Positions 22,991-63,292 are shown, counted from the first letter of the stretch. The stretch: DNA of 64,000 nt from Bacillota bacterium (GCA_017889635.1 JAGGAC010000010.1:18105-82104); one strand, 5' to 3'. Made by a program: numbers and translations. Notes: generated from the sequence alone by a model not told the origin.

Positions 22991-23401
22991 TTAATGCAGA
23001 AATTTTACCGTCATCTCCGGTAAATACCGGGCAACGGTGGGAAACAATTCATTTTCAAAACTTTTCTCATCGGAGATAACTTTCTCTAAAATCTTTCGCT
23101 CGATACTCGCATAAGGTTTTATCACTCCCATAAACGGATGATGGATTTCCGAATCCAGTTTGCCGTTTTCGACGTCTTCCACTCTTAGTCCACTAAGATA
23201 AAGAACATATTCCCCAACGACTCGTCCGTTTTCCAACACTTGCAGGCCGAATTTATTTTTTTTGTTGGCTAATATTGGATTCATTACTGAAAAAATCTGC
23301 GGATGTTTTTTTTCAAGAGCATCAAGCACCCGATTTCGCATCGGTACTAATTTGTCTTTAATCAAAGCATCGATATCTGTCATGATCGCTGCCGGACTCA
23401 T
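22991..23401 (-). CDS. hypothetical protein
   Basis: The 136-aa ORF has no recognisable motif. Confidence 0.4.
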   Translation of the reverse strand: MSPAAIMTDIDALIKDKLVPMRNRVLDALEKKHPQIFSVMNPILANKKNKFGLQVLENGRVVGEYVLYLSGLRVEDVENGKLDSEIHHPFMGVIKPYASIERKILEKVISDEKSFENELFPTVARYLPEMTVKFLH

Positions 23402-23673
23402 ACAGGAACACCTCTTTCAATTAATGGTTCTACTCTACAACTTTAATATCTGACTATAATGGAAATATTATTCCTCCATTAATTTTCTAAACAAGTACCC
23501 CATTTATTCAAATCACTGCTGGCTCATGTTTATATTAAAAATATGTTAACATCGGCAAAAAGGATTGAATAAAACCATTTATAGTAATACAATTATTACT
23601 ATAAATGGTTTTATATTGAAATTACAATGTGAAATGCTTAATCAAAAAATAGCAGAAAGGGATAGGTGTTATT

Positions 23674-24306
23674 ATGCCGCTAGCATCATATGGGGTTCTT
23701 AAATGCCAGCCTATTAAAGGAATGCACGCCGCTGACACGTCTCATTATGAGGTTCATGTTGTAGATGACGATTCTGATTATCGGATTGCAATCAATGTTA
23801 AATCTCAACAATCTCCACCAGAATTGCTTTACTATATCGACGAAAACTACCAAAATAATATTTTAGCCCAACTTGAAGATCTTCCTTTAGGATTTACAGC
23901 TCTACAAAGCACACCGGAAAGTATAGCGCTGGATTATCTCCGCAAAAACCTTTTTGATTACCACAAAATGCAAACTGCTCATCACATTATAGGAGCGGAC
24001 AATGAATTAGCCGAACTCATTGAAAAGTATATTGATCTAGCAATTCGGACAAGCAATTCAACCATATATGCCTTTGGACAAAAATGGGGGCCTGAGACTG
24101 GAAAGCGCGATCAGTACTTTGGATTCAAACCTGGAAATGGTATACACGATATCCATATGAACCAAGGAAACACCGGACGATTCGAAAAAGACAATGGCCC
24201 TTATCAGGACGGTGGACTTTTCATTCACTTTCCGGTAAAAAATCAACTAGTAGCCATATTTCTAGCCTTTCAATCCCAATCCTTTGACCTAGATAAAACT
24301 AAATAA
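23674..24306 (+). CDS. DUF2278/YukJ-like protein
   Basis: The 210-aa ORF has an RBS AAGGGATAGG. The sequence pattern (…YRIAINVKS…GIHDIHMNQGN…) resembles the YukJ family. Confidence 0.5.
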   Translation: MPLASYGVLKCQPIKGMHAADTSHYEVHVVDDDSDYRIAINVKSQQSPPELLYYIDENYQNNILAQLEDLPLGFTALQSTPESIALDYLRKNLFDYHKMQTAHHIIGADNELAELIEKYIDLAIRTSNSTIYAFGQKWGPETGKRDQYFGFKPGNGIHDIHMNQGNTGRFEKDNGPYQDGGLFIHFPVKNQLVAIFLAFQSQSFDLDKTK

Positions 24307-24355
24307 TTATTACTAAAATTGGTATTTCGAAAGATAATTTTGATATCTAAATAAT

Positions 24356-24385
24356 AAACACCTGCTACTGAGTTGGCAGGTGTTT
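24356..24385. terminator. bidirectional terminator hairpin
   Basis: AAACACCTGC…GCAGGTGTTT lies between convergent genes. Confidence 0.5.
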
Positions 24386-24403
24386 ATTATTTCAACTAAC
24401 TTC

Positions 24404-24748
24404 CTAGTCATCAAAAACAATGGAGTCAAATGACTTGTCAATAACAGCTCCAAATAACTTTTGTCCCTCTATATAACTTCTAAGAATTATTTGCCCATAT
24501 TCAGACTCAGTTTCAGCTTTTTCAAGATTAGCTGCAATATCAGGTTTATTCATTTTTTGTAGTGTCTCTATAATCTCTGTCAATTCTTTCTTTGCCCTCT
24601 TAATAATAGCACTATCCATTATCCCATAGACTTTTTCCTTATACTCATGCCGTCGATCACGGTATTCTTGTACAGCCAGATATGTTGTAACAACAGAGCA
24701 TGCCGCTTCTACTACCTTTAGCCAGTCGCTCTCTCCCATTCTCCCCAC
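24404..24748 (-). CDS. hypothetical protein
   Basis: The 114-aa ORF is charged and helical with no recognisable motif. Confidence 0.4.
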   Translation of the reverse strand: MGRMGESDWLKVVEAACSVVTTYLAVQEYRDRRHEYKEKVYGIMDSAIIKRAKKELTEIIETLQKMNKPDIAANLEKAETESEYGQIILRSYIEGQKLFGAVIDKSFDSIVFDD

Positions 24749-24994
24749 TCCCTGAAATATAATAGCTAGTACAACATATGCACCAGAGAGCGGTTTATTA
24801 CAGAATAAGCCTCATGACTTAAAGTGCTCAGACTAAAATAATTATCACATTCACTTATCAATTAACATAACACTTTCATATTATATACAAAAGCCAGAAT
24901 CTTCTTCGTACATTATATATATCTATAAACCTTACCTTAAATATCATCGGCGCTTTAGAACGCCTTGAAACAACCGGAAGGAAGTGCAGTACAA

Positions 24995-25156
24995 ATGCCG
25001 TCCAAAGAAATACTGATGTTGTCAATCCTCGAATGGATACCAAGTCGATTATGGCTATATCTCATTATACTAATCTTTCTACTTTTCGTTTGGCTGTTTT
25101 TTCCGGTTATTTTTCTATTTATCATAATCATTTTCTTTCTTTGGCTCATCACCTAA
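24995..25156 (+). CDS. small hydrophobic peptide (53 aa), putative membrane peptide
   Basis: An ATG at 24995 is preceded by GGAAGGAAG (10-nt spacer). The product is MPSKEILMLSILEWIPSRLW + LYLIILIFLLFVWLFFPVIFLFIIIIFFLWLIT. Confidence 0.3.
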   Translation: MPSKEILMLSILEWIPSRLWLYLIILIFLLFVWLFFPVIFLFIIIIFFLWLIT

Positions 25157-27679: not shown

Positions 27680-28018
27680 TATTTTTCGAGCAATAATCGT
27701 ATTTGCAATGAGAAAAAGAAAGTCCCGCGACTTTCTTTATGGAAGACACCAAGTCTGATATCCCCTATATATTATACACTAATGCAAACGGCACTACAAT
27801 CAGCTTCCATTAGCAGCGCCCTATCTCCTGCAGCGGTTTCAAAACTGCTATAACCTCACTTAAGCTATTATACACTTACCGAAACCGCACTATTCTCTGT
27901 AAAATAAGTATAGACCACCTAGAGCTCTAGGCGGTCTATACTTATTTCTTTCCCAATAGCGCATCAAAGTGAGCATGACTCAAATCGCACTTATTTTACT
28001 TGTTTAACTTAATTTTTT

Positions 28019-28756
28019 CTATACTTCAGGCATTTTGTTAATTATGTAATCTATGTTAAGAAACATAATAGTTACAAAAATGTGCAGAAATACCTCCACG
28101 ATAGAAATAAGACTCTTTAATATAATATTTACATTAGAAGGAAAATATTTTCCAATTAAAACTAAACCAATACACAAAACCAGATATATCAACCCGATCA
28201 CCAATAATTTCCCGAACGTTCTCCACCAGCGTCCCTTAACCAAAGACTTACTATATACCAGCGCTTTTTCTGAGTTAACACCGCGCAAAACAACAGCCTG
28301 TTGAACAAAAACATAATATAACATCCATACTATTCCTGGTATTATCAAGAGAAACGAGAGTCCAAAACATATGAACATGCCTAAATATATCGCAAATATG
28401 CAGCTACCAACCCGGAAAAATCCAATTTTTAAAATAGATTTTACTTTTAGCTTGGCGTTCTCACCGTCAACAGCTTTTTCCACCAGTAGTAAAATAATGT
28501 TTTTCCAGGCTATTCCAATGAAAATCATAAATATTCCCAGGGAAATCAATGCAAGCCCGATTACAATACTTTGTTCGGGAGGGGTCGACTGTTGATAAAT
28601 AAGATATTCTTCACAGAAATACGACATTGCATTTATTGGTATAAGCATAATAAGCGTAATCAATAATATTGATTTAATTTGCTTTCCATAAACCATAAAA
28701 CTAGTTTTAATAATATCACCTAACCCAAATTCTCGCTGCCTAATTGCATCAAACAT
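28019..28756 (-). CDS. multi-pass membrane protein (unknown function)
   Basis: The 245-aa ORF has about 6 hydrophobic helices. Confidence 0.5.
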   Translation of the reverse strand: MFDAIRQREFGLGDIIKTSFMVYGKQIKSILLITLIMLIPINAMSYFCEEYLIYQQSTPPEQSIVIGLALISLGIFMIFIGIAWKNIILLLVEKAVDGENAKLKVKSILKIGFFRVGSCIFAIYLGMFICFGLSFLLIIPGIVWMLYYVFVQQAVVLRGVNSEKALVYSKSLVKGRWWRTFGKLLVIGLIYLVLCIGLVLIGKYFPSNVNIILKSLISIVEVFLHIFVTIMFLNIDYIINKMPEV

Positions 28757-28885
28757 TTTAGCATATCCTCCATTACTATTTATAATAAACTAGCAAGAGC
28801 ATACTCCATCGTTTCGAATGAAGTATGCTCCCACCCAAAAATTCGATATCCATATAGCTAAACAACAAAATAAAAGGTTATTTTC

Positions 28886-29833
28886 TCAACTATCTTTTGA
28901 TTCCGTTTTTGTTTCAGGTTCATCTACCTTTTCAGCTACATCTTCAGTGTTATCTTTCTTTCTCCTGAAAAATTTCGCTATCCCTGCCCCTAGCGCCACA
29001 ACAGCAACAATAATTACTTTAATAAATTTCAAGCAAAAGGCGCCGACAATAGCAAGAATCCCTAATTTCTTCGCAGCAACCCCACCAACAAGAGCTGCCA
29101 AACCGTATTCAGCAATCTTATCTGTAGAAGAATTAAAATCTTCATAGCGTTTTCCTGGTACATACTCAATCGCTTTCAGAAGATCAAGCGCCGCTGGTTT
29201 GTCACGCTCAATTTCTTTTAAATCAGTAACTAAGCACATATCGATGTAGCCTTCGCGCCCAAGTACATAGGTATTATAGTTTATTGTGTTGTCATCGCTG
29301 GTATCGCCTTTGTCGCGGGAAGATATCGACCAAATAAGCTGTCTTTTGGCCTGGTCATATTGCGGCTTTTCTACCCAACCGATTATTTCCATCTCTTTGA
29401 AGCCCTTTTTTGTCCGCTCTTTATTCAGTTCTTCCGTACCCTCTTTTAATTCCTTAAATAAATCATCTATATTCCAACTTTTAGCATCATCATCTTTTAT
29501 GTAACCTTCCGGTCTAAATTCGATAACAATATACCAATTGTCATCAGAATTTTTACTAACAACCATACCAAGCAAATCTTTGCTGTCGCCATTACCCATG
29601 GCTTTCATAATATTATTTGCTTCATTTTTAGGAATAAAAATATATTTATCAGGCAAGTTCAACTTAGCTTGATCACCCAAAGAAACTTCTTTAGGCCCAT
29701 CAATTGCTGCCTTTTCAGCCTGCTTCCAGGCTCGTTCAAGAGTGGCTTGGTTTGAAGTCGTTGCCGCTTCACCTACTACAGCAAAATTTAAAATAAATAA
29801 TAAAATTAACCCGATTAAATACCTCTTACTCAC
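28886..29833 (-). CDS. membrane-anchored secreted protein (DUF2167-like)
   Basis: The 315-aa ORF has a signal peptide, a soluble domain, a C-terminal TM helix and a charged tail. Confidence 0.45.
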   Translation of the reverse strand: MSKRYLIGLILLFILNFAVVGEAATTSNQATLERAWKQAEKAAIDGPKEVSLGDQAKLNLPDKYIFIPKNEANNIMKAMGNGDSKDLLGMVVSKNSDDNWYIVIEFRPEGYIKDDDAKSWNIDDLFKELKEGTEELNKERTKKGFKEMEIIGWVEKPQYDQAKRQLIWSISSRDKGDTSDDNTINYNTYVLGREGYIDMCLVTDLKEIERDKPAALDLLKAIEYVPGKRYEDFNSSTDKIAEYGLAALVGGVAAKKLGILAIVGAFCLKFIKVIIVAVVALGAGIAKFFRRKKDNTEDVAEKVDEPETKTESKDS

Positions 29834-30168
29834 AACTTCACTCCTATTTATAATGTTATTTCTTGCTTACAAAAACTACATAAAATTCTCCGTTCGCTTT
29901 GCTATAGCCCTTACTTAATTTATTCTAGCTAATATAAATTCTCCACTACCAACAAATCACCTTTTAAGGCAATTGCATTATTTATAAACTTTATATAAAC
30001 AAATGTTCTACCAATAATACATAACATAATTTCAACCACAAATCAGGCAACAATATGATAAAATCATACTACAATCAAAATTTTCTAGCACCTTTACGAA
30101 ATATCACCGTAGCGGTGCCACAAACAAGTTCAAAATAACATCGTATTAACAGAAATTAAGGAGCAAAT

Positions 30169-36265: not shown

Positions 36266-37045
36266 ATGGAAAAACGCTTTACAGGAAAATCTGTCATCAT
36301 CACAGGTGGTGCCTCAGGCATCGGCAAAGCTACAGCCTTCGCCTTTGCTAAAGAAGGTGCCAATGTCCTCATCGCCACCTCCAGCAGCGAAGATAAGGCT
36401 CGTGCCGTCGCCGAAGAGATCCGAAACACATACGGTGTGATTACCGCCGGCGTCCGCTGTGATGTTCGAAATGAGGCCGATGTGAAAACAATGGTTGCTA
36501 AAGCCACCGAGTGCTTTGGCACTATCGACTTTGCCTTCAACAACGCCGGTGTCGGCCCCGACGGCGTAACCATCCCCATTGCCCCATTATGCGAAGTCAC
36601 AGAAAAGGACTGGGATTGGGTCATGGATGTCGATCTTAAGGGCGTGTTCCTCTGCATGAAGCATGAGCTTAAGCAGATGGAAAAACAGGGGAACGGCTGC
36701 ATTATCAACACCGCATCTACCGCAGGCATGAAGCCAATGGCAAACTTAGGTGCCTACAGCCCTGCCAAAGCTGGTCTCATCCACTTAACAAAGGCAGCTG
36801 CTGTAGAGTGCTTTGGGAAGAACATCCGCTGCAACGTCGTCTGCCCAGGCCCGACATTAGGTACCGGAATGGCTGACCGCTTGTTCGGAAAACCCGGCGA
36901 ACAAGACCCTAACAACCCTTCCCTGCCGCCGCAGTTCTGTAAACCAGAAGACATCGCCACCGTAGTGCTCTGGCTCTGCTCTGATGCCTGCGCCAAAGTG
37001 ACTGGCAACGTGGTTACTGCCGACGGCGGTCTTGACGTCATATAA
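36266..37045 (+). CDS. short-chain dehydrogenase/reductase (SDR)
   Basis: An ATG at 36266 follows AGGAGGAACT. It has TGGASGIGKA and YSPAKAG (YxxxK). The track ORF is extended upstream of the real start. Confidence 0.8.
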   Translation: MEKRFTGKSVIITGGASGIGKATAFAFAKEGANVLIATSSSEDKARAVAEEIRNTYGVITAGVRCDVRNEADVKTMVAKATECFGTIDFAFNNAGVGPDGVTIPIAPLCEVTEKDWDWVMDVDLKGVFLCMKHELKQMEKQGNGCIINTASTAGMKPMANLGAYSPAKAGLIHLTKAAAVECFGKNIRCNVVCPGPTLGTGMADRLFGKPGEQDPNNPSLPPQFCKPEDIATVVLWLCSDACAKVTGNVVTADGGLDVI

Positions 37046-37100
37046 TTTACTACCCGTATATCAAAACATTCATTTTTCATATCAACTATACACATAAAAA

Positions 37101-37137
37101 TGACACGGCATAAATCCGTGTCATTTTTATGTTTTTT
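37101..37137. terminator. terminator hairpin (copy 1; part of the left direct repeat)
   Basis: TGACACGGCATAAATCCGTGTCA followed by TTTTTATGTTTTTTT. Confidence 0.55.
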
Positions 37138-37213
37138 TGGCAGGGGCAGTAGGACTTGAACCCACAACCAACGGTTTTGGAGACCGCTACTCTACCAATT
37201 GAGCTATACCCCT
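37102..37213. repeat. left copy of ~110-bp direct repeat (tRNA-Trp + terminator)
   Basis: It is near-identical to 44932-45043 and differs at a few positions in the T-arm half. Confidence 0.7.
37138..37213 (-). tRNA. trnW: tRNA-Trp (CCA), copy 1
   Basis: The minus strand reads AGGGGTATAGCTCAATTGGTAGAGTAGCGGTCTCCAAAACCGTTGGTTGTGGGTTCAAGTCCTACTGCCCCTGCCA. The anticodon loop CTCCAAA gives CCA. Confidence 0.9.
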
Positions 37214-37468
37214 ATGACCGCGAATTTACAAGCCTTGTAGACCTATGTATATATTGTAGTACAATTCAGGGTAACAAGTCAAACGTTAATATCTTATGTT
37301 GCATTTTCAGGGTAAGACTTAAGCCCTCACCTATATAAAAAAGCAGTCAAATTATATACCTTTCCTAATCCAAAAACATCATATTTATACCAGCGTTCAA
37401 CAAGACAACTTCAGGTGTTTAAGAAGCTACTACTTAGCTTGCAATTTACCGACACAACGATACTCCTT

Positions 37469-37891
37469 TTAACTATATTTAGGCAATTCCTTGCCACAAT
37501 TTATACAAACTATTGCTTCTTTCTTTATACCATCTGCACAAAATGGACATTTTATTATGCCACTAATAAACTGCTTTTTAGTGGGCTTATATCGAATAAT
37601 GCGATATCCAATATAAAATATCACCCAAAAAGCAAAATAACACGCATCGAAATTATTCCATCCATTTTTATTAATGTCCGTGATAGGGCGGCTCAATATC
37701 ATTATCATAAAAACCCGTTCTCCCCAGTCTTCATATCCAAATAGCCTATCAACGACAGCCAGTATTCCAAAAACAGAGAATATTACTAAATCCGGTAATA
37801 AGCTAAACCCTTGTGGATCTAGATACCAACCAACAGCTTCAAAAATACCGAGTATTAGTAAACCTTTGAACCAACGTGAATTTACTCTCAC
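37469..37891 (-). CDS. membrane protein with C-terminal zinc ribbon
   Basis: The 140-aa ORF has hydrophobic helices and a C-terminal CPFC…CINCG. Confidence 0.45.
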   Translation of the reverse strand: MRVNSRWFKGLLILGIFEAVGWYLDPQGFSLLPDLVIFSVFGILAVVDRLFGYEDWGERVFMIMILSRPITDINKNGWNNFDACYFAFWVIFYIGYRIIRYKPTKKQFISGIIKCPFCADGIKKEAIVCINCGKELPKYS

Positions 37892-38017
37892 CTTTCTTAA
37901 TCCCTTCTTAGATAATTCCTTTTATTACGCCACCAAGTGCTTAACGACAGGTACTTCAATCTTCTTTTAAATCATGTAGCCTAACTACTCTATTATTAAT
38001 AATCACTCAGCAGTAAT

Positions 38018-38647
38018 TTAACTTCCGCTCAAAGTATGCAGTTCGTTAATAAAATTATTTTCTTCAGCATTACGCCGACTTTTCTTAGCTTCATCAGTTT
38101 CTACCACTTCGACTTTGATACCACGCTTATTAAACTCCTTGATCAATACAGGTGCCTTAGCTTTCAAAACCTGGTCATTGACAATTCCAAACAAGTCAAG
38201 ATTCTCCTCCCCATTTTCTTCTTTTATAACAACTTTGCAACTATACGAATAACGCCCGCGATATGCATTAATAGTAATAATCGCAGGACTCTGTATACTA
38301 TCCAAAGATACTACTTTAGTAACAAATAAATTTCTGGCACTACGGTAACTAATTTCTTTATCCGTAATATGTCCGTAACCAAAGCTCCAAAAAAACACCT
38401 GGCACAAAGTAAATAATATAAGATATACGATGCCATCAATATTACGTCGATACTTACCCACAACTACTATTAGAAGAATTAATTGAGTTAACAAATAAAA
38501 TGTTTTAGTAAATGTAGGAAACACCAAAATATACTTATAGCTATTATTTAGGAATTCTAATAAACCCGGCATTGCAATAACCAGAAATATCCATATAACA
38601 AACAGAAACATCCTTAGAATTTTTTCCATCACTGTATTAACTCCCAA
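38018..38647 (-). CDS. membrane protein with C-terminal soluble domain
   Basis: The 209-aa ORF has 3-4 TM helices followed by a ~110-aa charged domain. Confidence 0.45.
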   Translation of the reverse strand: MGVNTVMEKILRMFLFVIWIFLVIAMPGLLEFLNNSYKYILVFPTFTKTFYLLTQLILLIVVVGKYRRNIDGIVYLILFTLCQVFFWSFGYGHITDKEISYRSARNLFVTKVVSLDSIQSPAIITINAYRGRYSYSCKVVIKEENGEENLDLFGIVNDQVLKAKAPVLIKEFNKRGIKVEVVETDEAKKSRRNAEENNFINELHTLSGS

Positions 38648-38700
38648 GTTTATGAAGTTCTTCTCCTCTTCCTATCTTTCATTTTGCCATTTAATGCAGT

Positions 38701-39129
38701 TTATAACTGCTTCTCAACAAACTTATGTGCTATTTTACTAGGAAGGATTCGCATGTAACCTTTAGTCCCTTTATTAAAGTGTTTATAATTAATTTTACCT
38801 TTCAAATTTCTTATTGGAACTTTCTCCATAGCAAAAAAGCAAAATCTCACAATGCCTACAATAATTGCACATAATATGAGGCCAAAAAGCAATAAATTAT
38901 CTATACCGTAATAATATTTAATAATGCCGTTAACAACAATATATAGAGAGAACAGAAGAAAGCATAATACTAATACTTTTGCCATTTCTTTTTTGCTTTC
39001 TTTTCTATTATCAAACATACATAATAAAATCATTCCTACTATCGAAAACCAATACTCATAATAATAGGCTTTTATAAAAGTTAATAGTTCCGATGATATC
39101 AATCTATCTCTCCTTCCAAGCAAATACAA
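38701..39129 (-). CDS. small membrane protein
   Basis: The 142-aa ORF has about 4 hydrophobic helices. Confidence 0.4.
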   Translation of the reverse strand: MYLLGRRDRLISSELLTFIKAYYYEYWFSIVGMILLCMFDNRKESKKEMAKVLVLCFLLFSLYIVVNGIIKYYYGIDNLLLFGLILCAIIVGIVRFCFFAMEKVPIRNLKGKINYKHFNKGTKGYMRILPSKIAHKFVEKQL

Positions 39130-39173
39130 CTATCATATAATAAGCAATATTCATAGTTAAAAGTATCGTATTA

Positions 39174-39896
39174 TCAACTTGAGTTTTTTCCCTGTCCGTT
39201 CGCTAGAACCGCCTTTATTTCTCGTTGCAGCCAAATAAACTCAAATAAATAGTAGAAACCAAAGCTTTCACCGCCAGCTATACACGCTGCAAATTCCCAG
39301 CCAAGTCCCAAAAAACCTGGTACAATCCCAGATATCATCCAAAAAGCCAGACATAGCCAACGCAGATAATTGAATCTTTTTTTATCTCTTACTTTATCGC
39401 AAACTACTGCAATAACTGCTGTTATTACCGCAGAAACTATTATCACGCCTAGCGCTTTCAACATTAGATTAGGAACTAGAGCTGTTTTAGAATTTTGACC
39501 ACCTAAAATAAAACTCGCCAATAAACTAACTGGAATTAATACTAGTGCCAGCATAAACTTCCAAGCGAATCCTTTTGGCAGTTCTTCTTTTACTCCAACT
39601 TGTGATACCACTTGCTTTTGTGACGTTTTCAACGTTTTACTCAAGAGATAATAAAGCCCCATTATAGTGATTGCTCCACCAACGGAGAAAATCCATCCCA
39701 AACTGCTACCTACAATTACTATAAAAATTCCGCATCCAATGCAGCACCACTTGAAAAGTTTTATACTCACCGCTTTCCGGCGATAGGCAAAATTGTGTAA
39801 GCACCCAACGATAAAAAACGCAAAGAAAATAGTTACTTTAAAAATTAATAAGCTATGCTGTCGTAATTCAACCGGCATTGCTAGATATTGTTCCAC
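39174..39896 (-). CDS. multi-pass membrane protein
   Basis: The 240-aa ORF has about 6-7 hydrophobic helices. Confidence 0.45.
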   Translation of the reverse strand: MEQYLAMPVELRQHSLLIFKVTIFFAFFIVGCLHNFAYRRKAVSIKLFKWCCIGCGIFIVIVGSSLGWIFSVGGAITIMGLYYLLSKTLKTSQKQVVSQVGVKEELPKGFAWKFMLALVLIPVSLLASFILGGQNSKTALVPNLMLKALGVIIVSAVITAVIAVVCDKVRDKKRFNYLRWLCLAFWMISGIVPGFLGLGWEFAACIAGGESFGFYYLFEFIWLQREIKAVLANGQGKNSS

Positions 39897-39918
39897 CCTA
39901 ACGCCCCATTCTCAATAA

Positions 39919-40293
39919 TTAATCAAACTTTTTACCACAGTTATAACAAAACTTATGCGACCGTTCGCATAGTTCAATTAAACACCAAGAACATCGCTTA
40001 TTCTTTATGTACATAATTAAACTTACAATTAAATACATTACGAAAACTAAACTAGCAAAAATGGCCTTTACAAACAATGTACTCTCAGGACCAAAAACCA
40101 TAACAATTACAAAAAGTCCAATGAAAAACAATTCTTTAGTCCATTTATTTAATGGTCCACATTTCACTGTTTTCATACCAGGATTGTTATTCGCGCCACA
40201 CAGAGGGCAATATTTATATATAGTTCTAACTCGTCCGACGTACCCGGTAAGGTCATAATGGCAAACGCGGCAGACTTTATTTTGTTCTTCCAT
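39919..40293 (-). CDS. double zinc-ribbon membrane protein
   Basis: The 124-aa ORF has CRVC…CPLCG at the N-terminus, two TM helices, and CSWC…CYNCG at the C-terminus. Confidence 0.45.
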   Translation of the reverse strand: MEEQNKVCRVCHYDLTGYVGRVRTIYKYCPLCGANNNPGMKTVKCGPLNKWTKELFFIGLFVIVMVFGPESTLFVKAIFASLVFVMYLIVSLIMYIKNKRCSWCLIELCERSHKFCYNCGKKFD

Positions 40294-40606
40294 GTTTTCT
40301 CCTTATTAAGTTCCGAAACTTCCTATCCATAAGTACAGCTACAATGTTGGTTCTTCCGCAGATGCAATTTTCACCTCATTACTGGCAATCAGCTGGCTAC
40401 CGTCAAAAGCCATTACAGGTATAGTAATTAAGAGCGGTAACATAAAAAAGACAAAACGGCATTTACCCAGAAATTCTTGCCAAGCCTCTAAGCTATATTT
40501 CCATACAGCCAAGCCTTCACTAATAAGTTAAGCAAAATCATTAAGCCAAGCAACACGCCTTCGTAATGCTAGTAAACAAAGCAGAAACTTATTAATCTAT
40601 TTCTGA

Positions 40607-41068
40607 TTAATTCAAGACGAAACGAAAGCTTAATGTATAAGTGCGATCATTTCCATCAAAAGCGCAATTAAGATTATATTTCCCTTTGGAAAAGTTTATT
40701 GACTTTTTGGTTTTAGTTTCTTCTAGTTTAGTAATTTGCCATCCGTTTTTTGAAGTTTCGTTCAAATAGAAATCGCGAATATCTTCCCATGGTTTGTCAG
40801 TTAAATAATTGAAATCAATATGACCTTTTAAAGATTTGTCTATGTCGTAAGTTTTTGAATTAACCAGAGTTGCATCTGGCAAAGGAGAAAGATTATTATA
40901 TTCTTTTTGTATGGTTTCTTGAGCAATTATTTTTTCTTCAGCTAATTTTTCATGGCGAGATTGTAATTTGGAAGAAATTATAATCTGCGCTACAGTTATA
41001 ATAACTAAGATTACTAGTAATGGGAGTATGAACTTTTTTGACATCAATAAAACTTGTTTTAGCTTCAT
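40607..41068 (-). CDS. membrane-anchored/secreted protein
   Basis: The 153-aa ORF has an N-terminal signal/anchor helix. It lies 2 nt downstream of the 41070 gene. Confidence 0.45.
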   Translation of the reverse strand: MKLKQVLLMSKKFILPLLVILVIITVAQIIISSKLQSRHEKLAEEKIIAQETIQKEYNNLSPLPDATLVNSKTYDIDKSLKGHIDFNYLTDKPWEDIRDFYLNETSKNGWQITKLEETKTKKSINFSKGKYNLNCAFDGNDRTYTLSFRFVLN

Positions 41069-41069
41069 A

Positions 41070-41777
41070 TTACTCTTCTTTCAATTTACGAAGAAAATCT
41101 AGAATCTCAAGGTATAACCAACCGAGCGTAACAAGAAGACCAAAAGCGCAATACCACTCATATTCTGCGGGTAGTCCTTGTTGTACACTTTTATTGATCT
41201 TCTCGTAATCGATAAACAAATATAAAGTTATTATACATATAACTACCAAACTAAATATTATACCAACGACTCCACCTTGATGTATCATGGAAATGTTTAC
41301 ACCAAAAAACCTTAAAACGAATTCAAGCAAATACGTTAAAAATATACCAAGTGTGGCCATAGAGACTGCCCGCATATAACCATCGTTAACTTTCACATAT
41401 CCTTTTGCGTAAATGAGCGCTGAACTAATTGCAATGCCACAGGTTATCATTACAGCGTTAATTACAATACCAGGATAGATTTTTTCAGATATTACTGCTA
41501 TTGATGCAAAAACTATACCGTCTAACATAGCGAATAGCGGCGATAAAAAACCAGCCCACTCCGGGGCAGAGATTATGGCAAGAGCTACAAAGAATCCCAT
41601 TATTACGGCAACACTTCCCGTTTCTTCGGTTGCATAACCCATTACCCAAGTTATTAGTGCCGATACTGTTACAATCCCTACTAACACCAGACTCTTTATC
41701 GCTACGCCCTCATAAGTTGCAGCATCGCTGCCATAGGTATGAAATTCTCCAACTTTTGAAATCACAGGATTTGCCAC
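41070..41777 (-). CDS. multi-pass membrane protein
   Basis: The 235-aa ORF has about 6-7 TM helices. Confidence 0.45.
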   Translation of the reverse strand: MANPVISKVGEFHTYGSDAATYEGVAIKSLVLVGIVTVSALITWVMGYATEETGSVAVIMGFFVALAIISAPEWAGFLSPLFAMLDGIVFASIAVISEKIYPGIVINAVMITCGIAISSALIYAKGYVKVNDGYMRAVSMATLGIFLTYLLEFVLRFFGVNISMIHQGGVVGIIFSLVVICIITLYLFIDYEKINKSVQQGLPAEYEWYCAFGLLVTLGWLYLEILDFLRKLKEE

Positions 41778-42043
41778 AACAAATCAGCTCCTTTTAAAAC
41801 TTACACGCACTTCCCATAACTTTTAAAAAAATTTGCAAACTTACGTGCTTACTATTATAATTTATTTGTATTTCATACTTTTCTACAATATATATAAATA
41901 TCCTTTTTACATATTGTTTTTTGTATTTCAGTATATAAATAATTCCAATTGAAGATTACACCAAGGCTTTATAGACAATAAAAGAGGCACCATAAGATGC
42001 CTCATACTTTTTCAGCCAATATAAATATTAAAACATCCATCTT

Positions 42044-42235
42044 TCATTTTTTACGCACAAATGCCGCCTTGCAGTTAGGGCATTGTACTTCGTATTCTTT
42101 ACCAAAAGGAATATCTGCGTCATTGAAATAAAATTCAACTTCACATACACTACATTTGATTATTTCGCAATATGTTCCTTTTAGATGCATATTACACATA
42201 ATCTCTTCGTAAGCTAATCTCCATAAATAGCCCAT
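42044..42235 (-). CDS. small zinc-ribbon protein
   Basis: The 63-aa ORF has CSVC…CPNC. Confidence 0.35.
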   Translation of the reverse strand: MGYLWRLAYEEIMCNMHLKGTYCEIIKCSVCEVEFYFNDADIPFGKEYEVQCPNCKAAFVRKK

Positions 42236-42300
42236 TTTTACATTTGAGAAACCATTAAGTAAACTGGTATCGCGCGGAACATCTTCATAAGCACGTTTTG

Positions 42301-42654
42301 TTAATTTATATGGAGTATAGTTAAAAACACCACTCCTTGACCATCATAATATTCTTTTGCGTAAACGCCAGATCTCCACAAGGATTTATCTTTCTTTTTC
42401 TGTTCTATTTCTGCATCAGTAAGAATCATAGAAACATCAATCTCTGCATTTCCCTTATATCCAGAACACAATGTCTTACGTTCACCAAAATCACAGTTGC
42501 CAGTAAAATCATCAAATTCTTTTTTGGTTATTTGAATGTAAGCGGGTATATCTGCAAAGCCTGTCAAAACTTCAAACGCATAAATATTATCTCCGAACAT
42601 CCCCACTGAGCAATAATTGCCTACTTTAAGCATTTTATAGTCTTTATAATTCAT
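42301..42654 (-). CDS. hypothetical protein
   Basis: The 117-aa ORF has no recognisable motif. Confidence 0.4.
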   Translation of the reverse strand: MNYKDYKMLKVGNYCSVGMFGDNIYAFEVLTGFADIPAYIQITKKEFDDFTGNCDFGERKTLCSGYKGNAEIDVSMILTDAEIEQKKKDKSLWRSGVYAKEYYDGQGVVFLTILHIN

Positions 42655-42867
42655 CCATATCCTCCTTTTCGACTTTCGAAATCATTAGAATCAATATCAC
42701 CTAACAACCTCCTCAATGATTTTGCCTTCTTTTTACATTTCTCAACCTGTGTATAAGAGTTACCGTTTTGCAAGAGATGTAAAACGTTCTTTAGCTGATA
42801 CTCAGTATATTTCTTAGGTCTGCCATCCTTAAATCCTGCCTTCGTTCTGACAATTTCCTTTAATGAT
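42654..42867 (-). pseudogene. frameshifted 3' remnant of a serine recombinase (resolvase/invertase C-terminal HTH domain)
   Basis: The minus strand encodes …AGFKDGRPKKYTEYQLKNVL, then a 1-nt frameshift, then HLLQNGNSYTQVEKC…. This resembles the Gin/Hin/resolvase C-terminus (GGRPpKlt…LL..G.s..QVA). There is no start codon and no catalytic domain. The stop overlaps the ATG of the 42301 gene. Confidence 0.45.
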
Positions 42868-42952
42868 TATAAAATGAAAAGCAAGGAAATAACCACTGTT
42901 CAATTTCGTCGGAATTACCCTTAGTAATGAGATGTTTTGAAAATAATAAAGG

Positions 42953-43345
42953 ATGGGGATTTATATGAAAATTGACCATATCGCTTTATACACCAACAGT
43001 TTAGAGAAATTGAAGGAATTTTATACCCACTATTTTAACGGTAAACCAAATGATAAATACGTAAATCCCCTTAAAGGATTCGAGTCTTATTTCATTACAT
43101 TTGAGTCAGGTGCTAGGTTGGAACTCATGCAGCAAAATGGAATTATAGAACATAACTCAAATTCTTTCACAGGTTTGATTCACTTAGCATTTTCGGTAGG
43201 CAGTAAAGAAAAAGTCGATGAACTAAGCCAAAGGCTTGAAAAGGAAGGGTTTAAAAAAATTAGCGGCCCACGCCTAACAGGAGATGGTTATTACGAGAGC
43301 TGTATTATGGACCCCGATGGCAATATAGTGGAAATAACAATATGA
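42953..43345 (+). CDS. glyoxalase/bleomycin-resistance (VOC) family protein
   Basis: The 130-aa ORF shows a VOC fold pattern (KIDHIALYT…HLAF…MDPDGNIVEI). Confidence 0.6.
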   Translation: MGIYMKIDHIALYTNSLEKLKEFYTHYFNGKPNDKYVNPLKGFESYFITFESGARLELMQQNGIIEHNSNSFTGLIHLAFSVGSKEKVDELSQRLEKEGFKKISGPRLTGDGYYESCIMDPDGNIVEITI

Positions 43346-43786
43346 GTTTATAGCAACTAAAAGTTACAATTTACCGGTGTTATAAGTAGCTTTTCAACAC
43401 CGATAATATTCAGCTCTTATACATCCTATTTAACACCATCAATAATGCCCTTGAAGTCTTACAATTGCCTATACTATCGGCCTTTTTCGAGCCATCCATT
43501 GTTTAACATTTAATTCGTACTATTTCAGTGTAGTTTTTGGTGATTTAAGTTACGACTAATTGTGGACACTTCGTTGCTTAGATATTTCCTTTAGTCTGCT
43601 AAAGTGGCACCTTGGTAGTATTTTAACGTTTAAAAGTGTAATGGTATATGTATATAAAAGCAGCATTACATTCAAGATATAGGTTAATGTTTGCCGCAAT
43701 GGGTTTTTAGGTAAAAATTATTATCGCAGGAAATAAGTATAAAACCTAGAAATAAAACATCAGTTTGATATTGGAGGAAATAATTA

Positions 43787-43972
43787 ATGACACGTAACCC
43801 ATTAGAAATTCTCATTATATTTTTTATCATTCTTACAATAATTTCTGTGATTCTTGATAGTTTCGTTTCTTCCGGTAGTCACATATTTGCACTACTAGCC
43901 GGATTATCAGTTTTAGTGCTTATTATCTTAGGATTTATCCATAAACTAAGTCATGGACATTGGGATTGGTAA
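43787..43972 (+). CDS. small two-helix membrane protein
   Basis: The 61-aa ORF has an RBS TTGGAGGAAAT. Confidence 0.4.
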   Translation: MTRNPLEILIIFFIILTIISVILDSFVSSGSHIFALLAGLSVLVLIILGFIHKLSHGHWDW

Positions 43973-44080
43973 GCTTATCAACAGTCTACCCTTACCTAAC
44001 GATATACTTAAAAAAGGTCGCCTAAAAAGCCTAAACGCTTTTTGAGGCGACCTTTTCTTTAACAATATAAAACTCTTAGC

Positions 44081-44392
44081 TCAAGCCTTGGCTATCATTG
44101 TTTCTAAAAGTTTTTGGAGTTGGTTTCTTTGCTCCGCGGTTAGCTTCATTACAGTTTCTAACAATCGACGAAGTTCCGGTGTAAACTCCGGTTCCGCTTC
44201 AGCAAAAAAATCGGCAAGAGTAATACCCAAACCATGGCATATCTTTTCAATTGTTTTATATTGCGGATTCGGATCACTATTATTCATAATGCTATTCAGT
44301 GTTGACTGCGTAATATCCGATAACTCAGCTAATCTATTAATACTGATATCTCGCTGATTGCTTAACTCTAAAATACGGTTTGCTATGTTCAT
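44081..44392 (-). CDS. XRE-family HTH transcriptional regulator
   Basis: The 103-aa ORF has an N-terminal HTH_3-like segment (…RLAELSDITQSTLNSIMN…). Confidence 0.6.
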   Translation of the reverse strand: MNIANRILELSNQRDISINRLAELSDITQSTLNSIMNNSDPNPQYKTIEKICHGLGITLADFFAEAEPEFTPELRRLLETVMKLTAEQRNQLQKLLETMIAKA

Positions 44393-44613
44393 ATTTCATC
44401 CTCTTATTAACGGCGATTCATTATTCTGAGTATAGCAAGAATAGTAAAGAATAATTAACGATGAAGCGTTGACTTTTTAACCATGTATCGTTATAATATC
44501 TTTGAGATGGTACTCATTTAGTAGTTTGAGCAAAAACTACGCTATATTTGCTTTAGTATGACTAAAATCAGTTATTAATTAAATCCAGTTATTGCTCGAC
44601 AAAAGAAAGAGGA

Positions 44614-44811
44614 ATGATAACATTGTTATGGTACATCCGAGATGGGCACGTCGAGGAATATTGCGGCCAAGAAGCCAACTGGAATAACGAGACAATAGTA
44701 ATTGCCGACTTACCGGAAGATGCGCTAATCAAGGTTCTACTGTATTATCGTAAAGAATTGAAACGCCAGAATATATTCTACAATGGCACTATAGTTTCTG
44801 TAATCCCTTAA
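44614..44811 (+). CDS. hypothetical small protein
   Basis: The 65-aa ORF is followed directly by the terminator CCGCCTCCGGGCGGTTTTCGC. The start may be the TTG at 44623. Confidence 0.35.
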   Translation: MITLLWYIRDGHVEEYCGQEANWNNETIVIADLPEDALIKVLLYYRKELKRQNIFYNGTIVSVIP

Positions 44812-44931
44812 CCGCCTCCGGGCGGTTTTCGCATTACCCAGGGTAATTGTTTGATTCAGCAAAGGTCATCAGCACGCATTAGCATAGATCTACATCCAAT
44901 CGTTCAACTCTCATGTAGACAAAAGAAAAAT

Positions 44932-45043
44932 AACACGGCATAAATCCGTGTCATTCCTTGTTTTTTCTGGCAGGGGCAGAAGGACTTGAACCCTCAACCA
45001 ACGGTTTTGGAGACCGCTACTCTACCAATTGAGCTATACCCCT
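44932..45043. repeat. right copy of ~110-bp direct repeat (tRNA-Trp + terminator)
   Basis: It matches 37102-37213. Confidence 0.7.
44968..45043 (-). tRNA. trnW: tRNA-Trp (CCA), copy 2
   Basis: It is the same as copy 1 except for a few T-arm substitutions. Confidence 0.9.
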
Positions 45044-45048
45044 ATAAA

Positions 45049-45106
45049 TGGAGCGGAAAAACCCTCGCCTTGGCAAGGCGATGCTCTACCACTGAGCTAT
45101 TTCCGC
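45049..45106 (-). pseudogene. truncated tRNA-Gly(GCC) lacking the T-arm
   Basis: The minus strand reads GCGGAAATAGCTCAGTGGTAGAGCATCGCCTTGCCAAGGCGAGGG-TT-TTTCCGCTCCA. The ~18-nt T stem-loop present in the intact copy at 53930-54004 is replaced by 2 nt. Confidence 0.6.
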
Positions 45107-45112
45107 ATACGC

Positions 45113-45189
45113 TGGCGACCCCGAAGGGATTTGAACCCTCGATCTCCGCCGTGACAGGGCGGCATGTTAGACCACTACACCATGGGGCC
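45113..45189 (-). tRNA. trnD: tRNA-Asp (GTC), copy 1
   Basis: The minus strand reads GGCCCCATGGTGTAGTGGTCTAACATGCCGCCCTGTCACGGCGGAGATCGAGGGTTCAAATCCCTTCGGGGTCGCCA. Confidence 0.9.
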
Positions 45190-45396: not shown

Positions 45397-46452
45397 ATGA
45401 TACTGAACTGCAACGCTGTATTCGAAGGTGGCGGAGTCAAAGGGATTGCAATAGCAGGAGCAGTTTTAGCCATGCAAAAAGCCGGGTACACATTTGAGAA
45501 TATGGCCGGCACTTCGGCAGGAGCAATTGTAGCCGCACTGCTTGCCGTCGGATATTCAGGCGCCGAAATCTACGAAATATTGCGTACTATAAATTATAAA
45601 GATTTTAGAGATAGTACCTACCTCTTCGGCCTGCCCGGAAAAATCTTCAGCCTTTCCTTACACTACGGACTATACCAAGGCGACTACTTTACTCACTGGC
45701 TTGATACACTGCTTAAAGCCAAAAGCAAAACTACCTTTGGCGATATTAAACAGGAAAATCCCGCTATTGATAAATACACCTATAAGTTTCAGGCCATCGC
45801 CTCAGATATCAGCGCCAAGAAGCTGTTAGTACTGCCCGGCGACTTAAAAAACTTCGGTCTCGACCCCGATACCTTCAGCATTTCGCATGCCGTAAGAATG
45901 AGCATGAGTATACCACTAATTTTCGTTCCCTTTAGATTAACAGACACAAGTGGTGAAGAACATCTAATCGTTGACGGCGGAGTACTCAGCAACTACCCCA
46001 TCTGGCTGTTAGATGACGGCACCATCGATCCCCTGCAGCCCACTTTCGGATTTAAACTGCTGGAATGCAACGATCCCCTTGCCGCCCAGTGCCGTCAACA
46101 CCAAATTCAAAGTCTCCTAGATTATCTCAAAAACCTGCTAACCACCATGCTTGACGCCCATGATAACTATCATATTGCCCACACCAAGGGCGACTTTGAG
46201 CGGACAATCGCAATTCCAACCACAATCAATCTCCATGGCGAACTCAAAAACATCAGCGCCATCGATTTTGACATTAGCCCAGAAGAAAGCACCGCCTTAT
46301 TTAACAACGGACTTTCTGCCGCTAACGCCTTTTTAGAGCACTGGGACTTTTCAGTATGGAAAAATAACCACCGAGAACTTCTCCGAAACCGCTTCACCAT
46401 AAGCCCTCCAGCTACCTTACATCCAAGGCCTGGCAGCCATTACATTCGATAG
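45397..46452 (+). CDS. patatin-like phospholipase
   Basis: The 351-aa ORF has GGGVKG (oxyanion) and GTSAG (nucleophile elbow). The RBS is GGAGGAG. Confidence 0.8.
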   Translation: MILNCNAVFEGGGVKGIAIAGAVLAMQKAGYTFENMAGTSAGAIVAALLAVGYSGAEIYEILRTINYKDFRDSTYLFGLPGKIFSLSLHYGLYQGDYFTHWLDTLLKAKSKTTFGDIKQENPAIDKYTYKFQAIASDISAKKLLVLPGDLKNFGLDPDTFSISHAVRMSMSIPLIFVPFRLTDTSGEEHLIVDGGVLSNYPIWLLDDGTIDPLQPTFGFKLLECNDPLAAQCRQHQIQSLLDYLKNLLTTMLDAHDNYHIAHTKGDFERTIAIPTTINLHGELKNISAIDFDISPEESTALFNNGLSAANAFLEHWDFSVWKNNHRELLRNRFTISPPATLHPRPGSHYIR

Positions 46453-51795: not shown

Positions 51796-51884
51796 TGGTG
51801 CCGAGGACCGGAATCGAACCGGTACGGATGTTTCCATCCGACGGATTTTAAGTCCGTTGCGTCTGCCTGTTCCGCCACCCCGGC
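51796..51884 (-). tRNA. trnL: tRNA-Leu (TAA)
   Basis: This is an 89-nt class II tRNA with a long variable arm. The anticodon loop is CTTAAAA. Confidence 0.9.
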
Positions 51885-53847: not shown

Positions 53848-53922
<75 letters not shown>

Positions 53923-53929
53923 AATTAAG

Positions 53930-54004
53930 TGGAGCGGAAGACGAGATTCGAACTCGCGACCCTCGCCTTGGCAAGGCGATGCTCTACCACTGAGCTACTT
54001 CCGC
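53930..54004 (-). tRNA. trnG: tRNA-Gly (GCC)
   Basis: GCGGAAGTAGCTCAGTGGTAGAGCATCGCCTTGCCAAGGCGAGGGTCGCGAGTTCGAATCTCGTCTTCCGCTCCA. Confidence 0.9.
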
Positions 54005-54008
54005 ATAA

Positions 54009-54084
<76 letters not shown>

Positions 54085-54098
54085 ATTACATTATAAAA

Positions 54099-54175
54099 TG
54101 GCGACCCCGAAGGGATTTGAACCCTCGATCTCCGCCGTGACAGGGCGGCATGTTAGACCACTACACCACGGGGCC
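54099..54175 (-). tRNA. trnD: tRNA-Asp (GTC), copy 2
   Basis: Same as copy 1, except the acceptor reads GGCCCCGTGG. Confidence 0.9.
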
Positions 54176-61789: not shown

Positions 61790-62045
61790 GTTTAAATGCG
61801 ATGCGCGGGATAAGTAAGTCATTTTTGTTTTTCAGAGAGCCGAGGGAACGGTGCGACTTGGCAAACCGATTGACTGAAATACACCCGCAAGCTGCAGGCT
61901 GAAGGTAATAGTAGGCCGAGTCGGTAGCCGCCGTTACAGGCTTGAAGGGTTTGACCCTTCGTTAAGCGGCTTTGTATTGGCAACAAGGGTGGTACCGCGG
62001 GTTTTAAGCCCGTCCCTCATTAGGAGGGACGGGCTTTTATTTATT
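61790..62045 (+). promoter_or_regulatory. T-box riboswitch leader (Tyr) upstream of tyrS
   Basis: It has a Stem-I AGAGAG element, a likely specifier GAAAUACA (UAC), the conserved AACAAGGGTGGTACCGCGG, and a terminator AAGCCCGTCCC…GGGACGGGCTTTTATTT. Confidence 0.75.
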
Positions 62046-62074: not shown

Positions 62075-63292
62075 GTGTCTGTTTTTGACGTTTTAAAAGA
62101 ACGCGGTTTTATTCAACAACTAACCCACGAAGATGAAATTCGCGAGCTATTCGCAAACGAAAAAGTCACCTTCTACATTGGCTTTGATCCTACAGCCGAC
62201 AGCCTACATGTCGGCCACTTCCTTGGCATGATGGTCATGGCTCATATGCAACAACATGGCCATCGCCCCATCTGTCTTATTGGCGGTGGCACGGCTATGG
62301 TTGGTGACCCCTCCGGCAAAACTGATATGCGCAAAATGATGACCCAAGAACTTATTAGCCAAAACGGCGAAAGATTCAAAACTCAAATGCAAAAATTCAT
62401 CGACTTTTCGGATGGAAAAGCACTGATGATGAACAATGCCGACTGGCTGCTCGGTCTTAATTATGTCAACTTTCTTAGGGATATCGGCGTTCACTTCTCT
62501 GTAAATCGAATGCTCACCGCCGAATGCTTTAAGCAGCGACTAGAAAAGGGCCTATCCTTTCTGGAGTTCAACTATATGCTAATGCAAGCCTACGATTTTC
62601 TTGAACTCAACCGCCGCGTTAACTGCATAATGCAAATGGGCGGCGACGATCAATGGTCCAACATTATTCAAGGCGTCGAGCTTATCCGCCGTAAAGAAAG
62701 CAAACCTGCCTACGGCCTCACATTCACCTTACTTACCACAAGCGACGGCCGGAAAATGGGTAAAACCGAGAAAGGAGCCCTTTGGCTGGATCCGGCAAAA
62801 ACCTCTCCATATGACTTCTACCAATACTGGCGCAACATTGACGATGCCGATGTAGAAAAGTGCCTGGCCCTCTTGACATTCCTGCCGATGGATGAAGTCC
62901 GTAAACTTGGAGCACTTAAGGACAAAGAAATTAATATCGCCAAAAAAGCCCTAGCCTTTGAAATTACAAAAATCGTCCATGGCCAGGAAGAAGCAAACAA
63001 AGCTCAGCAGGCAGCCGAGGCCTTGTTTGGAGGAACAGGAGCCTTAGAGAACGCCCCTACCGTTACAATTACCCTAGCCGAAGCGTCCGCTAAACTAATT
63101 GACATCCTGACAGCCAACGGAATCATTGCTTCAAAAAGCGAAGGACGACGACTCATTAGTCAAGGCGGCCTATACCTTGGTGACATCAAAATTACTGACC
63201 CAGATTTCAGTCTGAGCGCCAACCTATTTATCGACGGAAGTATACTTGTCCGTAAAGGCAAAAAGACATATCACCGCTTAGTAATTGAATAA
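62075..63292 (+). CDS. tyrS: tyrosine--tRNA ligase
   Basis: The 405-aa ORF has the HIGH-type motif [11 protein letters not shown], the KMSKS-type KMGKT, and a C-terminal S4 domain. Confidence 0.9.

Follow-up and report, generated by a model that had tools for sequence, protein, structure and literature searches.

Why should two complete tRNA-Trp genes stand in the same orientation at the two ends of an AT-rich stretch of DNA in which no mobility gene can be detected? The locus that raises this question lies in a 64,000-nucleotide stretch of a Bacillota bacterium genome (GCA_017889635.1, JAGGAC010000010.1:18105-82104), hereafter the window, from whose first letter all coordinates are counted; the host group is probably related to the Negativicutes. 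A preliminary description of the window, made from its sequence alone, had taken the roughly 7.7-kb interval between the two genes for the decayed footprint of an old tRNA-targeted integrative element, with the tRNA copies as its att sites. We give an even chance to another reading, in which the tRNA-Trp gene is a hot spot where DNA has inserted repeatedly, each time leaving a second copy of the entire tRNA together with its terminator, and the present occupant (the island) is integrase-less, mosaic and fixed. The locus would then probably be an ordinary recurrent hot spot, with nothing new in kind.

A tRNA-Trp repeat around AT-rich DNA

All eight tRNA genes that ARAGORN called in the window lie on the minus strand, and two of them are tRNA-Trp(CCA). 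The full-length distal copy lies at 37138-37213 (Rfam score 66.7 bits); the proximal copy, at 44968-45043 (66.3 bits), is the final gene of a tRNA Asp-Gly-Trp operon and was also compared across lineages. A repeat search of the window returned a single direct repeat of 120 nt at 93% identity (37096-37215 and 44926-45045), whose unit is the complete 76-nt tRNA gene plus around 44 nt of downstream sequence, in direct orientation; no further tRNA-Trp remnant was found inside the window besides these two copies. The preliminary description was right that two full tRNA-Trp genes form direct repeats. It had also called the downstream hairpins identical and placed all differences in the T-arm, which is true of the tRNA but not of the DNA that follows it: over the 112 nt that it had delimited (37102-37213 and 44932-45043) there are nine mismatches, two in the tRNA and seven in the 36 nt downstream, one of the latter within the hairpin stem and the others between hairpin and tRNA.

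The two tRNA mismatches, at window positions 37150 and 37164, correspond to tRNA positions 64 and 50 and form a single T-stem pair, U50-A64 in the distal copy vs A50-U64 in the proximal one; the change is compensatory, and a cloverleaf fold was obtained for both copies. Because the tRNA-Trp of other Firmicutes (IMG/VR loci L100 and L102) matches the distal sequence at 100% identity, both T-stem variants are natural, functional sequences, and the distal T-arm variant was discarded as a candidate for an element-specific mark. Around 40 nt upstream of the distal gene there is a promoter-like site, TTGACT-18-TACAAT (37253-37282, minus strand), recognised by its match to the consensus only. Judged from their sequences, both tRNA-Trp copies appear functional, and we infer that the distal copy is functionally expressed.

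Each copy is followed by a hairpin, the core of the distal one being nearly identical to that of the proximal one. The proximal tRNA-Trp has what looks like an intrinsic terminator (44926-44958, minus strand; 13 pairs plus a T-run, -16.1 kcal/mol). At the distal end, the hairpin at 37092-37132 (no strand assigned; -24.0 kcal/mol) has a 17-bp stem without mismatches, with an A-run and a T-run on its opposite sides, and looks like a bidirectional terminator common to the distal tRNA-Trp on the minus strand and a convergent short-chain dehydrogenase (SDR) gene on the plus strand. Blastn and alignment further delimited a post-terminator motif next to the proximal hairpin (44893-44925, minus strand, TCTTTTGTCTACATGAGAGTTGAACGA), beyond which the variable DNA starts.

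The enclosed interval (37214-44892, no strand) has a GC content of 0.34 and contains 14 open reading frames (ORFs), and composition and profile searches detected no mobility gene in it. Among 7.7-kb blocks of the window it has the lowest GC (0.34 against 0.42; the minimum, 0.342, falls on the block that starts at 37001, and the median of such blocks is 0.41), and GC changes within ~200 nt of each tRNA-Trp copy. GC at third codon positions (GC3) averages 0.31 in the 14 island genes vs 0.41 outside (Mann-Whitney p=3e-5) and is low in every one of them. The interval is therefore more AT-rich than its surroundings, as had been described, and the strand-biased gene block is likewise there, with 10 of the 14 ORFs on the minus strand. 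These direct observations support an interval of foreign composition whose bounds coincide exactly with the direct tRNA-Trp repeats.

The absence of mobility genes is equally a matter of observation. Pfam found no integrase, recombinase or transposase domain in any island ORF (no Phage_integrase, Resolvase or rve) and no such domain when every intergenic gap was translated in six frames and scanned at E≤0.1, in line with the absence of an integrase that the preliminary description had reported. The recombinase pseudogene that it had listed does not survive these scans. A 65-aa ORF at 44614-44811 may have been the source of that call; it was ruled out as a gene fragment or recombinase pseudogene, being a conserved partner (46-51% identity) of XRE-family regulators. 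Nor was a cognate integrase seen anywhere in the 64-kb window by the Pfam scans run. We also rejected a prophage or phage satellite, for which PHROGs gave only generic XRE and zinc-ribbon matches, and an anti-phage defence island, for which PADLOC gave only generic helix-turn-helix (HTH) matches to the XRE protein. An integron cassette array or cluster of attC sites lacking integron integrases (CALIN) would show imperfect attC-type hairpins of ~60-140 nt between co-oriented small ORFs; it was dismissed because most spacers between co-oriented ORFs are of 22-53 nt and no repeated hairpin family was found. Comparison with phage and plasmid collections gave no similarity beyond the glyoxalase gene, and the only Rfam matches above threshold in the interval were tRNAs.

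The locus in related lineages

A patatin-like phospholipase gene on the right flank (45397-46452, plus strand) served as the conserved marker for finding syntenic relatives, and patatin-tRNA synteny was found in two lineages other than that of the window. In the metagenome-assembled genome (MAG) CTSoil_081 (L001/L086), whose patatin is 70% identical to that of the window, the patatin gene and the Asp-Gly-Trp operon are followed by 1.05 kb at GC 0.31, carrying one unrelated 241-aa orphan, and by a second intact tRNA-Trp. A third copy, decayed yet full length and ~80% identical, lies ~1.2 kb further on (~7195-7270, minus strand); the ORF of a Mem_trans gene, taken mechanically at its greatest length, overlaps this copy. 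In the other lineage (L088-L091; patatin 69% identical), the same patatin and Asp-Gly-Trp genes precede 1.33 kb at GC 0.38, with a DoxX gene and small ORFs, and then a decayed, full-length tRNA-Trp. A tblastn search of L001 and L088 recovered none of the window's 14 island proteins. Patatin plus Asp-Gly-Trp, the right flank, is common to three lineages with unrelated content; the left flank of the window is not syntenic. L001 and L088 share two core genes, an aminotransferase and TauE, 5-6 kb beyond the distal tRNA-Trp copy, so that their variable zone reaches past that copy.

The preliminary description had proposed comparing related genomes, expecting the interval to be absent and a single tRNA-Trp to remain. 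The content is indeed absent from both relatives, but they have two or three full-length tRNA-Trp copies. It had also named the finding that would speak against it, namely relatives with the same content and two tRNA-Trp genes in a conserved core context; half of this is borne out, since the context is conserved and the two tRNA-Trp genes are there, but the content differs.

Within the species, 21 kb of the ENA contig L003 match the window without a difference, save for 17 nt of the T-arm of a tRNA-Gly that the window lacks. Every public contig with the exact patatin or SDR protein has the same neighbours and the island, with no empty site among them, and neither excised nor empty forms were seen in six independent public contigs. 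Further away, a metagenome scan yielded 80 loci at ≤63% patatin identity, 49 of which were scanned for tRNAs; the tRNA synteny was found at 0 of these 49, and at neither P0027 nor P0005, these more distant patatin relatives having no tRNAs close by. A closer patatin relative, P0002 (87% identical), lies on a 2-kb contig and stands outside the tRNA comparison.

Comparison of the tRNA-Trp copies across lineages gave no sign of position-specific orthology in their sequence differences. One and the same sequence is found in the window's proximal copy, in the proximal copy of L088 and in the distal copy of L001, and the proximal copy of L001 carries a compensatory change in the anticodon stem. Near-identity of the hairpin core, in turn, is confined to the pair of copies in the window, many positions being different in the L088 orthologue, and therefore the tRNA-plus-hairpin block was duplicated or homogenised after the lineages split. 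On sequence grounds, the near-identical window hairpins point to an insertion event or gene conversion later than that split. In the 27-nt post-hairpin motif, 23/27 positions agree when the window's proximal copy is set beside that of L088, and 16/27 when it is set beside the window's distal copy (alignment counts). As the decayed copies of L001 and L088 can still be recognised despite ~30% patatin divergence, birth and loss of copies seem to be ongoing at the site; one ancient duplication, we argue, would leave no recognisable pseudo-copies at that divergence.

It is because the relatives have two to three tRNA-Trp copies with different AT-rich DNA between them that we favour a recurrent hot spot over the footprint of one element. 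The different occupants and the extra tRNA-Trp copies are observed directly, whereas the mechanism of insertion and the immobility of the insert are inferred. In the window, the 120-nt repeat of whole tRNA and terminator coincides with the GC transitions, and in all three lineages unrelated low-GC DNA (0.31-0.38) follows Asp-Gly-Trp and is itself followed by a further full-length tRNA-Trp in the same orientation. The distal T-stem variant, moreover, is a natural tRNA-Trp sequence of other Firmicutes, and an integrase-bearing element in IMG/VR targets a tRNA-Trp with the same 3' half. Under recurrent insertion, circular foreign AT-rich DNA carrying its own copy of tRNA-Trp and terminator would have undergone Campbell-type recombination with the chromosomal tRNA-Trp, either by a since-lost or trans-acting integrase or by homologous recombination over the ~120-150-nt shared block. 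The insert would come to lie between two complete tRNA-Trp genes, the proximal copy remaining in the operon and the distal copy having its own promoter-like site and a terminator shared with the SDR gene; with such a crossover at the 3' end of that block, the proximal unit would be host-derived and the distal unit incoming. The insert would now be fixed and unable to move itself, its cargo a mosaic that combines small orphan proteins of the membrane and zinc-ribbon kinds with a BaxI/YccA-like protein, a glyoxalase-family protein and a module of an XRE regulator and the 65-aa protein. What stands of the decayed tRNA-targeted element, with the tRNA copies as its att sites, is foreign DNA bounded by repeats; the lack of any integrase remnant, the whole-gene repeat and the mosaic cargo do not fit it.

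Genes of the interval and its flanks

Solid family matches were obtained for only three island ORFs, namely BaxI_1, glyoxalase/VOC and XRE HTH, and the remainder are small membrane or zinc-ribbon proteins. Starting from the distal tRNA-Trp, the minus strand encodes a 140-aa membrane protein with a C-terminal zinc ribbon (37469-37891; Pfam Zn_ribbon below the gathering cutoff, and weak PHROG matches to the zinc ribbon only) and a 209-aa orphan membrane protein (38018-38647; Pfam and homologue search), which besides itself had six matches at E≤0.001, only two of these at E≤1e-10, among 1.84 billion representative proteins. These are followed by a 142-aa orphan membrane protein (38701-39129), a 240-aa orphan multi-pass membrane protein (39174-39896; the public call uses an internal start and has 162 aa), a 124-aa protein with a zinc ribbon at both ends and a hydrophobic middle (39919-40293; Pfam DZR, E=7.7e-5, below cutoff) and a 153-aa protein with an N-terminal transmembrane segment (40607-41068; precomputed match to PF27226, AF_1845). 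A Bax inhibitor-1/YccA-like membrane protein comes next (BaxI_1; 41070-41777; Pfam E=2.3e-57), and then a 63-aa zinc-ribbon protein (42044-42235; Pfam Zn_ribbon_4, below cutoff) and a 117-aa orphan (42301-42654). On the plus strand, 42953-43345 encodes a glyoxalase/bleomycin-resistance (VOC) family protein (Pfam E=1.2e-18), and phage or plasmid records resemble the DNA of the island in this gene alone, at ~70-75% identity.

The nearest homologues of the BaxI protein (68-72% identical) are found in Sporomusa species and soil MAGs, where they are solitary, in unrelated contexts and without tRNAs nearby. BaxI was accordingly abandoned as a marker of a conserved element, and there are hints that its gene is mobile as a solitary unit. 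In Sporomusa sp. KB1, the homologue adjoins a Y2_Tnp transposase fragment (L092, 10848-11195). At the proximal end of the island, the XRE-family HTH regulator of the preliminary description is present (103 aa; 44081-44392, minus strand; Pfam HTH_3, homologues at 62-81% identity), with the 65-aa gene divergent from it on the plus strand. This pair (44081-44811) occurs in at least three other contexts, L103 (9667-10309), L104/L105 (L104 9662-10309) and L110-L114 (L110 3665-4310), where the partner is called as 64-86 aa; within the module, identity is 72-81% for the XRE protein and 46-51% for the partners. By sequence comparison, XRE and the 65-aa protein are a conserved two-gene module found in several unrelated genomic contexts. 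Since BaxI and this pair each occur alone elsewhere, the interval is a mosaic and not a conserved element.

Left of the island, the SDR gene (36266-37045, plus strand, GC 0.54) converges on the distal tRNA-Trp. To the right, the operon opens with tRNA-Asp(GTC) (45113-45189, minus strand; ARAGORN), and its tRNA-Gly(GCC) (45052-45106, minus strand; not called by ARAGORN, Rfam 46 bits) lacks 17 nt of the T-arm. The missing nucleotides (CGAGATTCGAACTCGCG) are present in the otherwise 100% identical contig L003, and the gap could be a true difference between strains or could have arisen in assembly, at a hairpin. An intact second tRNA-Gly(GCC) lies at 53930-54004, and the window further holds a tRNA-Leu(TAA) (51796-51884) and a second tRNA cluster, Asp-Phe-Gly-Cys (53848-54175), all on the minus strand; tRNA-Asp and tRNA-Gly(GCC) are thus likewise duplicated within 9 kb. 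Two T-box leaders were also detected, at 4217-4477 (minus strand, 126 bits) and 61792-62020 (plus strand, 125 bits), upstream of ORFs 3321-4172 and 62075-63292. Other AT-rich patches of the window, at 23001-25000 and 28001-30000, have a GC content of 0.33-0.37, and the second carries DUF7847 and DUF2167 genes.

Alternative explanations and known systems

Several observations weigh against a recurrent insertion hot spot. The lineages with patatin-tRNA synteny number three (n=3), the window and two others, and no single-tRNA-Trp empty site was found in any relative or in the six public conspecific contigs. Neither the island nor the DNA between the tRNAs in L001 and L088 yielded an integrase, excisionase, transposase, phage or conjugation gene, or remnant of one. 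As the cargo modules are met apart from one another elsewhere, the interval may be a piecemeal assembly. The window's repeat is a whole gene, whereas integrase-made att sites are typically a 3' fragment (PMC4383910). The post-terminator motif kept with L088 adjoins the proximal copy, when a crossover inside the tRNA predicts the opposite; an insertion model therefore has to put its crossover at the extreme 3' end of the shared block.

Some of these points would be expected if no integrative element had ever been involved and an ancestral tRNA-Trp pair, one in the operon and one standing alone with its own promoter, bracketed a permissive slot, with gene conversion keeping the two alike; the slot would fill and empty by ordinary horizontal transfer, through flank-anchored homologous recombination, insertions and deletions. 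We regard this as possible, if somewhat doubtful. In 3/3 syntenic lineages the full-length copies number two or more and keep one order and one orientation, for which it would account, as it would for the gene-like distal copies of the window and L001, with -10/-35-like sites upstream and compensatory stem changes; yet the pseudo-copies that can still be recognised (the third of L001 and the distal one of L088) imply recent birth or loss of constraint, and the surroundings of the distal copies cannot be aligned between lineages outside the tRNA, while the proximal copies keep the post-terminator motif. Intervals devoid of mobility genes, cargo modules that travel separately and an island present in all public contigs of the species also agree with an ancestral pair, although the near-identical window terminators, set against the diverged one of L088, would need extra gene conversion reaching past the tRNA, and a variable zone extending 5-6 kb past the distal copy in L001 and L088 means that the tRNAs do not delimit the slot. 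The interval might instead be native, vertically inherited DNA whose low GC stems from short, hydrophobic, fast-evolving orphans and long intergenic regions, beside an unrelated local duplication of tRNA-Trp. This we find improbable: 0/14 island proteins occur at the L001 or L088 locus, GC3 is low in every island gene, beyond the amino-acid-driven GC1 and GC2, and the GC steps fall at the repeats. The AT-rich patches at 23-25 kb and 28-30 kb (GC 0.33-0.37) would fit native DNA, as would a GC skew and strand bias in the interval like those of its surroundings and a BaxI ~70% identical to its Sporomusa homologues, which matches the divergence of the flanking patatin from its relatives; the BaxI homologues of relatives, however, occupy unrelated contexts.

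No better are the prospects of a still-mobilizable, integrase-less element of the satellite or cis-mobilizable element (CIME) type, for which the tRNA-Trp copies would be live attL and attR sites of an integrase encoded elsewhere. An intact, 93% identical repeat block does bound the interval, environmental elements with integrases that target the 3' half of tRNA-Trp exist and the concept is documented (PMC5704250). Against this stand the lack of any excised or empty form among the six independent public contigs, the failure to find remnant genes from integrative and conjugative elements (ICEs), integrative and mobilizable elements (IMEs) or phages, and the absence of a cognate integrase from the 64-kb window in the Pfam scans run.

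With the recurrent hot spot retained as our reading, one tRNA-Trp locus in an uncultured Firmicutes clade repeatedly gains unrelated AT-rich DNA together with whole tRNA-Trp copies. Integrase-based island finders would miss the 37214-44892 interval, and the second tRNA-Trp would have to be annotated as a real gene and not as an att scar. Should the whole-gene repeat be a product of the insertion mechanism, integration at tRNA genes would have a modest variant here, and such genes a way of becoming duplicated. No biological pay-off is visible so far in the cargo, which is made up of membrane and zinc-ribbon orphans without predicted function. It is unlikely, to our minds, that the locus represents a class of integrase-less islands that insert, homologously or in trans, via a self-carried, promoter-equipped tRNA-Trp and terminator. 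Were this true, each insertion would add a functional tRNA copy, the landing pad would be self-renewing, older copies would decay outward, as in the three-copy L001, and island acquisition would be tied directly to the birth and death of tRNA genes.

Among known systems, tDNA islands have as their signature a displaced 3' fragment of the tRNA, from the anticodon loop or the T-stem (Islander; Hudson, Lau and Williams 2015, PMC4383910). The window resembles them in its DNA of foreign composition directly 3' of a tRNA, its correctly oriented direct tRNA repeat and its intact target tRNA (44968-45043). It differs in that the far repeat is a complete tRNA plus terminator with a promoter-like site, and not a 3' fragment, and in that no tyrosine integrase gene was found in the island, so Islander filters would reject it. 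As for an island-free site, the content is absent from L001 and L088, yet other inserts and extra tRNA-Trp copies are found there.

CIMEs and tandem accretion at one att site are documented (Pavlovic 2004 and Bellanger 2011, reviewed in PMC5704250), as are integrase-less remnants at tRNA sites (PMC5704250, PMC2440964, PMC4383910) and, in S. avermitilis, actinomycete ICEs (AICEs) in tandem at a single tRNA-Arg (PMC2440964). Like a CIME, the window interval has no integration or transfer genes and yet has direct repeats at a tRNA 3' end, and the three serial tRNA-Trp copies of L001 recall accretion arrays. Derivation from an ICE or IME is not borne out, as no remnants of such elements were found and the nearest homologues of the cargo lie in non-element contexts; unlike those of CIMEs, the repeats are whole genes, and the att sites are putative. 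SLP1 reportedly has a 112-bp att site that covers an entire tRNA-Tyr gene, a precedent on which our reading does not draw.

The element in IMG/VR contig 3300033145_003417 (L107/L109) is a ~9.9-kb phage-like element with a tyrosine integrase, a D5-type primase, capsid and tape-measure genes, bounded by 48-nt repeats that start from the tRNA-Trp anticodon loop (L107 683-730 and L109 5852-5899), the integrase lying 126 nt from one of them. Neither of the two repeats amounts to a complete tRNA; this hints at a tandem array at tRNA-Trp. The element is a natural positive control, its repeats having the classic form known from tDNA islands (PMC4383910). It is similar in size to the island, and the T-arm and acceptor end of its target tRNA-Trp are identical to those of the window's proximal copy; it has, however, an integrase, phage genes and 48-nt repeats, where the window has a whole-gene repeat and no integrase.

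Horizontal gene transfer hot spots reportedly lie between conserved flanking genes with no identifiable mobile element (Oliveira et al. 2017, Nat Commun). The present locus is like them in having a conserved flank (patatin plus tRNA operon) with unrelated accessory genes in each lineage and no mobility genes, and the same flank with different content was found in three lineages. It differs in that whole tRNA-Trp genes, present repeatedly, mark the slot in the window; this suggests that recombination has a specific substrate and does not rely on generic homology of the flanks.

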